The position numbers and the translations under genes were made by a program. This document shows positions 26,464-26,955 of a stretch of 64,000 bases of DNA, one piece after another. The stretch covers positions 66,190-130,189 of the forward strand of contig JAZNPK010000010.1 in the NCBI GenBank assembly GCA_045589595.1, in the 5' to 3' direction. Each line of letters opens with the position of its first letter. The first letter of the stretch is position 1. The notes under the pieces are model-generated. The model did no database searches and was not told the DNA's origin. It worked only from the letters and a program-made list of their open reading frames with translations. This DNA comes from Victivallales bacterium. Its GTDB lineage: Bacteria > Verrucomicrobiota > Lentisphaeria > Victivallales > UBA1829.

Positions 26464-26492
26464 TTGACAATGCAATTCGTGGAAGGTACAGT
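26464..26492 (+). promoter_or_regulatory. Near-consensus sigma70-type promoter
   Basis: TTGACA (26464-26469), 17-nt spacer, TACAGT (26487-26492). Confidence 0.45.
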
Positions 26493-26529
26493 AACTGCGC
26501 GTGCGAATAAATTTAAGAGGAGAGCAACA

Positions 26530-26934
26530 ATGCCAGTATACAGTCATAATGTTACTCAGCCGTTGAGCATAAATCAAATTTTGTACTCTAACGGTATGGT
26601 ATTTTGTGGTCTGCTCTTCACCAATTCAGCTTGCGCGAATGTAGTGAGCGCAAGCAAGCAAGCAAGCAAGCAAGCAAGCAAGCAAGCAAGCAAGCAAGCA
26701 AGCAAGCAAGCAAGCAAGCAAGCAAGCAAGCAAGCAAGCAAGCAAGCAAGCAAGCAAGCAAGTAAGCAAGCCTTTATTTGTCAAATAAAGGCTTGCTTCA
26801 ATCCGGCGCGATCCCGACCGGATTTTTCCTTCCCCATTTTTCATCATTCTCCGGTATGTCTTTTCATGCCCGGACTCTCTCTTCGTATCTTCGACCGGCA
26901 CGGCAGGAACTGTGCCGGTCTTTTCTATTTTTAA
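26530..26934 (+). CDS. Leader-type ORF running through the (CAAG)n tract; coding status uncertain
   Basis: AAGAGGAG RBS at 26515-26522 and ATG at 26530. MPVYSHNVTQPLSINQ... then (ASKQ)10, ending 21 nt before the next gene. No homology recognised. Confidence 0.3.
   Translation: MPVYSHNVTQPLSINQILYSNGMVFCGLLFTNSACANVVSASKQASKQASKQASKQASKQASKQASKQASKQASKQASKQAFICQIKACFNPARSRPDFSFPIFHHSPVCLFMPGLSLRIFDRHGRNCAGLFYF
26651..26770. repeat. Tetranucleotide microsatellite (CAAG)n: 28 perfect units followed by 2 more, the first reading TAAG
   Basis: Read directly. CAAG is repeated without interruption over 26651-26762, followed by TAAG CAAG. Confidence 0.98.
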
Positions 26935-26955
26935 CACACAAAGGAGCTTGAAATA

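Follow-up and report, generated by a model that had tools for sequence, protein, structure and literature searches.

A candidate slipped-strand switch in a CAAG-repeat leader of a Victivallales bacterium, and its related loci

Known repeat-driven switches and the CAAG leader

Most of what is known of phase variation by repeat tracts comes from a small number of pathogens, in which the tract usually lies inside the regulated gene. Here we analyse a 64-kb window of a Victivallales bacterium (the whole stretch studied, from contig JAZNPK010000010.1), in which a long CAAG tetranucleotide tract lies in the leader upstream of a gene encoding a protein of 309 amino acids (aa). Coordinates are positions within this window, the leader and the genes behind it are on the + strand, and related loci carry labels such as L001. 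From the sequence features described below, we consider it likely that the locus is a slipped-strand phase switch in a translated leader, the translation of which would override a terminator and couple to the downstream gene.

In Streptococcus gallolyticus, the pilus loci pil1 and pil3 are controlled by a switch made of a GCAGA-repeat leader and a terminator, as was shown genetically (Danne et al. 2014, PLoS Pathog; PMC3894217), and frames that stop within or after the terminator lead to high expression by ribosome-mediated antitermination (PMC3894217). The CAAG leader resembles this system in having a repeat unit that is not a multiple of three in a short leader open reading frame (ORF) downstream of a promoter, a stem-loop terminator between the leader and the regulated genes, and surface structures as cargo. 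The two differ in the unit (a CAAG tetranucleotide in Victivallales, a GCAGA pentanucleotide in pil1/pil3), in the host (a Gram-negative bacterium of the Planctomycetes-Verrucomicrobia-Chlamydiae group as opposed to a Firmicute) and in the usual ratio of states, which is one ON to two OFF for the CAAG cassette and two high to one low for pil1/pil3. Unlike in pil1/pil3, the long frame of the CAAG cassette in most cases stops at the start codon of the next gene or overlaps it, which would add translational coupling, and a conserved 16-bp palindrome carries the OFF stops. Finally, the CAAG cassette occupies many loci per genome across the order and is known from sequence, whereas pil1 and pil3 are two loci of one species that were demonstrated by experiment.

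The Haemophilus influenzae lex2A gene carries a (GCAA)n tract in which 12 units correspond to the ON state and 10 and 11 units to the OFF state (PMC6479036). GCAA is CAAG in another register, and in both systems the unit number modulo 3 decides, the repeat-bearing ORF is distinct from the regulated gene (the glycosyltransferase gene lex2B in Haemophilus) and the cargo includes surface modification. As a short upstream ORF, lex2A reportedly controls lex2B. Most Haemophilus loci, unlike the CAAG leader, carry the tract inside the gene that it controls, in its 5′ end, and they are not known to possess a conserved palindrome, a structured leader or a terminator module; the lineages are unrelated.

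Tetranucleotide tracts that modulate expression from a position upstream of the gene are also known from nadA of Neisseria meningitidis, with TAAA repeats upstream of the promoter, and from uspA2 of Moraxella catarrhalis, with AGAT repeats in the 5′ untranslated region (UTR); the 7-bp repeats upstream of hmw are an example of length-tuned expression. The nadA and uspA2 tracts act through promoter or regulator spacing or through UTR length and are not read by ribosomes, whereas the frame signatures of the CAAG leaders argue for translation. In the Escherichia coli pyrBI and trp leaders, a ribosome trailing the polymerase prevents folding of an overlapping terminator (PMC3894217). These leaders respond to a physiological signal, UTP or charged tRNA, while in the CAAG leader the signal would be a heritable, stochastic change of frame. 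Literature searches that paired Victivallis, Victivallales or Lentisphaerae with repeats or phase variation brought up no relevant report. Mechanisms of this class have been described before; a conserved, modular, multi-locus cassette in Victivallales appears to be undescribed.

Architecture and exit frames of the window locus

Direct reading of the tract that is the proposed switch (26651-26770) gave (CAAG)28 at 26651-26762, then one TAAG unit and a last CAAG unit ending at 26770, and Tandem Repeats Finder (TRF) reported a period-4 array at 26650-26771 with 30.5 copies, 98% matches and a score of 237. A regular-expression census revealed it as the sole long microsatellite in the 64 kb, indicating that it is not a chance feature. 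Two hallmarks of contingency loci are therefore present in the window, namely a long, near-perfect repeat far above chance and a unit (here of 4 nucleotides, nt) that is not a multiple of three and lies within a translatable, in this case predicted, ORF.

The leader transcript would start from a promoter-like site, TTGACA-17-TACAGT, at 26464-26492. This consensus match agrees at 10 of 12 positions and is the best and only one of that score between 25500 and 30500; the overall number of promoter-like sites in this 5-kb region was not above that in shuffled sequences. No other promoter-like site on the + strand lies between it and the gene for the 309-aa protein, and a promoter between tract and gene was rejected as a candidate, no site there scoring 9/12 or more. 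Related loci have similar TTGACA/TATATT sites upstream of their leader ORFs. A Shine-Dalgarno sequence, AAGAGGAG (26515-26522), stands 7 nt before ATG 26530, from which a leader ORF of 134 codons (26530-26934, in the present, ON-type frame) extends to the TAA at 26932-26934, spanning the tract, a hairpin termed hp1, a pyrimidine-rich spacer and a terminator. The frame of ATG 26530 is the only one with an ATG-started ORF entering the tract. A promoter upstream of a repeat-containing leader ORF, recognised here by consensus only, is likewise a feature of the pil1-type switch. In all these elements (tract, promoter-like site, AAGAGGAG ribosome-binding site (RBS) and ATG) TRF and direct reading agreed with an earlier note on this DNA. 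A Pfam search with the product of the leader ORF gave only a spurious low-complexity match.

Two hairpins flank the tract, an 8-bp and a 16-bp one, both found where the same note had placed them. The 5′ hairpin, hp0 (26629-26655, GCTTGCGC...GCGCAAGC, −14.9 kcal/mol), pairs 26629-26636 with 26648-26655, and its 3′ arm takes in the first repeat unit; its motif CTTGCGCGAAnGnAGTGAGCGC is common to the window, L023, L024, L048 and L053, in which it is the last module before the tract. On the other side, hp1 (26764-26798, −20.5 kcal/mol) is a perfect 16-bp palindrome, AAGCAAGCCTTTATTT/AAATAAAGGCTTGCTT, in which 26764-26779, formed by the last two repeat units, pairs with 26783-26798. As an intrinsic terminator hp1 was rejected, since no U-run follows it. 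The spacer that comes next (26799-26892; C 35%, T 37%, G 15%, A 13%) is homologous to the leader of the related loci over its first ~50 nt, and nhmmer matched window positions 26764-26850 to positions 1-85 of the leader model with an E value of 9e-11.

Beyond hp1 and these ~50 nt, the window leader departs from the family model and has a terminator of its own, which had been overlooked. This intrinsic-terminator-like element (26893-26930, −21.9 kcal/mol) consists of an 11-bp stem with 8 G-C pairs at 26893-26920 followed by TTTTCTATTT; it lies within the ON-frame leader ORF and directly upstream of the RBS of the 309-aa gene, so that a predicted intrinsic terminator stands between repeat and gene as in the pil1-type switch. 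The RBS (AAGGAG, 26941-26946) and the ATG (26956-26958) of the regulated gene, together at 26941-26958, are conserved in L001-L003. At gathering scores, Rfam found nothing at this locus or at seven related ones, and its e-value mode gave only a CsrC-like match on the minus strand (26752-26946, 23.5 bits against a gathering score of 61), which is probably a chance effect of composition, namely the GGA motifs of the purine-rich minus strand.

All three exit frames were translated, and total unit numbers from 26 to 34 were simulated. Because the unit is 4 nt long, gain or loss of a unit changes the exit frame. The present frame (27, 30 or 33 total units) passes hp1, the spacer and the whole terminator and stops at the TAA at 26932-26934, 7 nt before the RBS and 21 nt before ATG 26956. 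One OFF frame stops at the TAA at 26763-26765, which derives from the TAAG variant unit, and the other at the TAA at 26786-26788 in the 3′ arm of hp1. The in-frame TAA that the TAAG unit supplies thus leaves one long and two short outcomes; the simulated unit numbers gave one ON for two OFF, and the assembled allele is in the long-frame state. Early stops at 26763-26765 and 26786-26788 as against a post-terminator stop at 26932-26934 are again the pil1-type arrangement, and the family is arranged likewise.

Translation of the frames reproduced the stops at 26932-26934 and 26786-26788 given in the earlier note and led us to revise other parts of it. The second frame, said to run to a TGA at 26949-26951, 4 nt before the ATG, is closed by the TAAG-derived TAA at 26763-26765; it is open in L001, L002 and L003, all of which lack the variant unit, and there leaves a gap of 4 nt. 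That all three frames encode the same peptide is true of the 28 perfect units and fails beyond them, owing to the TAAG. The central proposal, that the unit number sets the delivery of ribosomes to the start of the gene, holds in essence on the comparative evidence, although the ON stop lies 21 nt and not 4 nt from the ATG and the terminator had not been taken into account. As the open frame reads through that terminator, antitermination plus coupling is likelier than coupling alone.

The switch would then operate as follows. A promoter near 26464-26492 would start the mRNA, and ribosomes translating the first ORF from ATG 26530 would enter (CAAG)n, where gain or loss of a unit during replication would shift them among the three exit frames. 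In two frames translation would end at once, at the TAA of the TAAG unit (26763-26765) or that of the hp1 3′ arm (26786-26788), and some 100 nt of C-rich RNA would then stay untranslated, with the terminator at 26893-26930 free; transcription would halt and the genes would be OFF, Rho acting on the C-rich spacer being an alternative to the terminator. In the third frame, the present state (27, 30, 33... units), ribosomes would cross hp1, the spacer and both arms of the terminator and stop at 26932-26934, 7 nt before the RBS, thereby preventing the terminator from folding and being delivered near the start codon. The first regulated gene, known from the earlier note as DUF2971-like, would be ON, and probably also the two lipoprotein genes after it.

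Related loci and competing explanations

Related loci were sought with the exact pattern of the junction between tract and hairpin, AAGCAAGCAAGYAAGCAAGCCTTT, which excludes the 3′ arm of hp1, in one genome per species and in metagenomes. The scan yielded 98 further loci, 52 from genomes and 46 from metagenomes. Among the genome loci, 46 of 52 are named Lentisphaerae, Lentisphaeria, Victivallales, Victivallaceae or Victivallis vadensis DSM 14823, and one assembly gives up to four. The hp1 3′ arm is present in 75 of the 85 unique junction loci and invariant in 22 aligned leaders, and the AT-rich relatives L006, L026 and L049 have kept the palindrome with a different sequence. Junction tracts in contigs of Methylomonas, Bacteroidaceae and Defluviitaleaceae are without hp1. 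In two of the latter, the metagenome-assembled genomes (MAGs) L036 (Bacteroidaceae) and L040 (Defluviitaleaceae), tracts of 30 CAAG units lie at contig ends, upstream of a lipoprotein-like gene and a membrane-protein gene and without hp1 or the family leader; long CAAG tracts are thus also present outside Lentisphaerae.

The order of parts in the family is tract, 16-bp palindrome with the OFF-frame stops, structured leader, terminator, RBS and co-oriented gene. In most loci hp1 is followed by a leader of ~190 nt with three further helices, the last of which precedes a T-run; a terminator-like hairpin occurs at this place in at least 53 of 75 loci, and the long frame overlaps it always. Compensatory changes are seen in its canonical form. 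A four-helix structure drawn from one of the 22 aligned sequences was 92.5% paired across them, as against 35-46% when the partners were slid, and 12 pairs showed compensatory changes versus 3.8 ± 1.4 in shuffles (0/500). In nhmmer searches with the canonical leader, the window contained no further copy, and ~400 kb of flanks of the other loci contained none that lacked a tract. The window-specific junction pattern had no match in metagenome contigs, and the absence of junction matches in viral contigs gives no sign of a phage origin.

Some 75 related loci follow the same frame logic. Of 49 loci, 38 have an exit frame that stops between −30 and +6 nt from the next ATG; dinucleotide shuffles would have 8.7 loci open that far. 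With improved start calls for 75 unique loci, 47 had two short exits and one long exit, and 23 had two long exits; one exit frame is usually open for 130-550 nt (up to 546 nt) and ends at the start of the next gene. The ATG of the gene lies −35 to +45 nt from the long-frame stop in 60 of these 75 loci, with 18 ATGA overlaps, one −1 overlap, 12 gaps of 1-7 nt and about 20 gaps of 12-26 nt, in which, as in the window, the stop comes shortly before the RBS. The short frames end 7-20 nt past the tract, at a TAA in the loop or the 3′ arm of hp1. On the upstream side, exactly one frame brings an ATG-started ORF into the tract in 40 of the 41 loci with enough sequence; judged by that frame, 11 alleles are ON, 29 are OFF and 1 is ambiguous, which is near the 1:2 ratio expected if lengths wander. 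These signatures point to a leader that is translated.

Tandem inserts in the leaders all have periods that are multiples of three, with 90 nt after hp1 (L033 and L060; TRF) and 45 nt (L033), 57 nt (L001) or 105 nt (L059) before the tract, and the long frame stays open across them. About four copies of the 90-nt module are seen at L033 6860-7242 and L060 4805-5187, and the module also occurs in L050 and L059; each copy ends with the hp1 3′-arm sequence AATAAAGGCTTGCTT, and the open frame encodes a recurrent motif (NKGLLLSEAKNLLLVWSEATDR.TWRSQA.). Many leaders begin with a conserved RBS and the peptide MRTTTATTAFKMPxYGIS, from which the leader start in the window differs. This start follows the RBS GGGGA in L024, L038, L048, L050, L053 and L060, ~85-150 nt upstream of the tracts, and the region shows third-position changes and a small co-varying hairpin (GATGCCG...CGGTATC). 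A nascent-peptide or RNA role of the conserved leader start is possible. At the other end of the leader, most loci read the tail as NKGLL..., whereas the window, L002, L023, L027, L047, L051, L054 and L057 read it as IKACF.... Since the same nucleotides are read in different frames, the tail is not a conserved protein, and openness and RNA structure are kept instead. In L045 (69-410), the long leader frame continues without a stop to the next gene, being fused in-frame to a 42-aa lipoprotein-like ORF (MKKFFMLLTVVLAVVVCCSGC...).

The earlier note had called for a comparison of tract length in related genomes, and pairs of contigs from different samples revealed that the unit number differs between near-identical alleles, as in contingency loci. 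L062 and L101, with flanks 99.75% identical upstream (400 nt) and 100% identical downstream (600 nt), have 5 and 14 units, and L083 and L105, with flanks of about 98%, have 10 and 8. L104 and L095 (100% downstream) have 7 and at least 10 units, and L080 and L061 (99.3% downstream) have 10 and at least 14; in L073 and L077 (99.5% upstream, 98.4% downstream) both tracts have 6. The window and L001, about 95% identical and only downstream, have 30 and 25 units. The putative orthologues L013, L044 and L046, in different species, carry 21, 14 and 7 units. Complete tracts in the family range from 5 to 31 units, and many tracts sit at contig ends.

Relatives of the 309-aa gene show the module kept, changed or absent. 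L001, with a 94% identical protein, and L002 and L003 (85%) have the same tract, hp1, spacer, terminator and RBS upstream; the contigs of L002 and L003 start within the tract, which indicates assembly breaks. In L006 (= L028), a very AT-rich Victivallaceae MAG, a 50%-identical relative lies behind (CAAG)12, a palindrome of different sequence with a 5′ arm beginning in the last units, and a terminator-like hairpin; an RBS-equipped ATG stands 20 nt before this tract, and in one frame 171 nt of AT-rich sequence are free of stops (shuffle P 0.01). The relatives in L004 and L007 (56-58% identical) are without the module, indicating that the switch is separable from the gene. Window 26670-28286 and L001 5717-7331 are 95% similar, and this similarity begins inside the tract, while promoter, leader start and neighbouring genes upstream of 26670 are unrelated; this suggests that recombination may occur at long identical tracts, exchanging 5′ and 3′ halves between cassettes or rearranging the chromosome.

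Pfam searches with 30 downstream proteins revealed AIDA-type adhesin repeats (two loci), MBOAT, GtrA, two extracytoplasmic function (ECF) sigma-like proteins, three PEGA-domain proteins, Sel1/DUF805, SPFH with zinc ribbons and TetR; many of the proteins had no Pfam family. This mix of cargo is like that of contingency loci elsewhere. In Victivallis vadensis DSM 14823 (L052) the cassette lies upstream of an ECF sigma-like gene, and since this strain is culturable the switch idea is directly testable. More tentatively, and with somewhat less than even confidence, we propose that Victivallales carry a standardised, portable cassette before dozens of surface and regulatory genes per genome, made up of leader start, optional in-frame tandem modules, (CAAG)n, stop-bearing palindrome, structured leader and terminator, in which identical tracts would serve as recombination points swapping promoter/leader halves and the palindrome as a frame filter and as a slippage stimulator or boundary. 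Such a modular leader could make any downstream gene phase-variable, and it is apparently reused across an order of poorly studied gut and rumen bacteria, with genes for adhesins, enzymes of cell-surface modification, ECF sigma factors and lipoproteins among its cargo. If the switch is real, the leader-peptide/terminator design, which experiments have established for the two pilus loci of a single streptococcus, would prove to be general and evolvable; commensal Lentisphaerota would be seen to vary their surface stochastically, the many contig breaks in Lentisphaerota assemblies would be explained, and a compact natural part for building heritable stochastic switches would be at hand. The portable-cassette proposal, if true, would give a non-pathogenic phylum of the gut a contingency system that spans the genome and is undescribed.

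Other explanations of the tract have to be weighed against these data. It might be an untranslated modulator in the 5′ UTR, its length tuning mRNA folding, stability or factor binding in a graded, frame-independent manner, as would suit a tract that lies 185 nt upstream of the gene and outside its coding region, in a highly structured leader, bracketed by hairpins that use the terminal units and allow register-shifted pairings. We regard this as improbable, because it leaves unexplained the exit frame that is free of stops up to the next start codon in most loci, the frequent ATGA overlaps, the inserted modules in multiples of three and the single upstream frame with an ATG-started ORF. The chances are similarly low that a small functional protein with a (QASK)n repeat between an N-terminal peptide and a C-terminal tail is made from the leader ORF and is the true target of phase variation, with operon polarity accounting for effects downstream. 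The window N-terminus is unrelated to the common one, non-multiple-of-three indels separate close relatives, the tail coincides with conserved RNA helices and is read in the other frame (IKACF...) in eight loci including the window, and no Pfam family was matched beyond the spurious low-complexity hit; for such a protein speak the recurrence of MRTTTATTAFKMPxYGIS with third-position changes in many loci and that of the commonest tail, NKGLLLPDRSLSGRKFHSFSDFQG....

Least probable of all, in our view, is a repetitive-element scar or recombination hotspot, with tract and palindrome as parts of an intergenic repeat specific to the lineage and resembling miniature inverted-repeat transposable elements or repetitive extragenic palindromes, with no regulatory role and neutral drift in length. 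Many copies per genome with mosaic modules, contigs that often break at the tract and a similarity between window and L001 that begins in the tract, with unrelated sequence upstream, are what such an element would produce; it would not account for an orientation to the downstream gene that is always the same, a position just before the RBS, a conserved architecture of frames and stop codons, and the lack of tract-less leader copies in the ~400 kb of flanks and of matches in viral contigs.

The reading as a translated-leader switch has weaknesses of its own. Both promoter and terminator are recognised by consensus alone, in a group, the Lentisphaerae, whose promoters have yet to be characterised; beyond carrying stop codons, the extremely conserved hp1 palindrome is given no role by the model. 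The family loci are paralogues and orthologues rather than independent samples, and their gene starts are heuristic; with two long exits in 23 of the 75 loci, the ON:OFF ratio is not uniform. In the window, the open frame is not significant on its own (dinucleotide shuffle P ~0.49), openness being unremarkable in a spacer that is 72% pyrimidine, and with the ON stop 21 nt from the ATG direct coupling would be weaker than in loci with an ATGA overlap. Variation in length at the window locus rests on one 95%-identical relative, L001, with an unrelated upstream half, and unit counts from short-read assemblies can be imprecise.

Putatively regulated genes and neighbouring sequences

The first putatively regulated gene (26956-27885) encodes the 309-aa protein, a member of a rare family with only 18 relatives in 5.8 billion clusters. 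Its earlier label, DUF2971-like, could not be upheld as family membership, since PF11185 matched over the full profile with 16.7 bits and an E value of 0.019, below the 22-bit cut-off. Weak matches to PF11185 in 14 of 17 relatives, the best at 8e-5, make a distant kinship to DUF2971 plausible from sequence. The family has a nearly invariant H-Y-T-T motif and invariant R/E positions. An AlphaFold model of the protein was confident (pLDDT 82.5, pTM 0.80), and the top three PDB matches of this model in Foldseek were all DarT ADP-ribosyltransferase toxins, with weak scores (E 0.05-0.11, TM 0.25-0.37); the resemblance of the modelled fold to DarT is not significant and may serve as no more than a lead. 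Searches of PADLOC and NCBIfam with the protein returned no meaningful match, and a sequence profile search of the PDB gave nothing. Exact-sequence look-ups of this protein and of the FGE protein described next returned no record, and a peptide-pattern scan of genome contigs with the 309-aa protein returned no confirmed relative.

A lipoprotein gene with an FGE-sulfatase domain (PF03781, E 3e-29) follows at 27950-29473, and a small lipoprotein-like ORF, co-oriented with it, at 29564-30217. No strong terminator on the + strand was found between the 309-aa gene and these two genes, and the genes at 27950-30217 may be co-transcribed with it as one operon. The earlier note had described the FGE gene as bearing a VR (variable region), for which we found no support, since a sensitive blastn search of the whole window with the C-terminal part, 29150-29480, found only itself. 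With no template repeat in the window, the idea of a target of a diversity-generating retroelement was dropped, although a template may lie outside the window. The gene has internal repeats with a spacing of 210 nt, at 28508-28582 and 28718-28792.

Dispersed direct repeats bracket the switch and its three genes, with one pair at 26358-26421/30874-30937 (88%), which corresponds to an ORF 3′ end plus terminator, a second at 25938-26160/33943-34165 (83%) and a third at 33577-33660/36238-36321 (96%). The ORF at 26220-26378, which had no Pfam or NCBIfam match, is one that we take to resemble the C-terminus of a serine recombinase. By eye, two neighbouring ORFs of the minus strand, 30286-30720 and 30741-30887, appear to be pieces of a single MBOAT-type acyltransferase gene that is split and has lost its 5′ end where it meets the repeat at 30874; an intact MBOAT gene is the cargo of the CAAG switch in L014. 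Other tandem arrays detected by TRF in the window have 60-nt units (3.7 copies, 43556-43776) and 12/39-nt units (1759-1900); as their periods are multiples of three, they may be coding repeats, unrelated to the CAAG switch.

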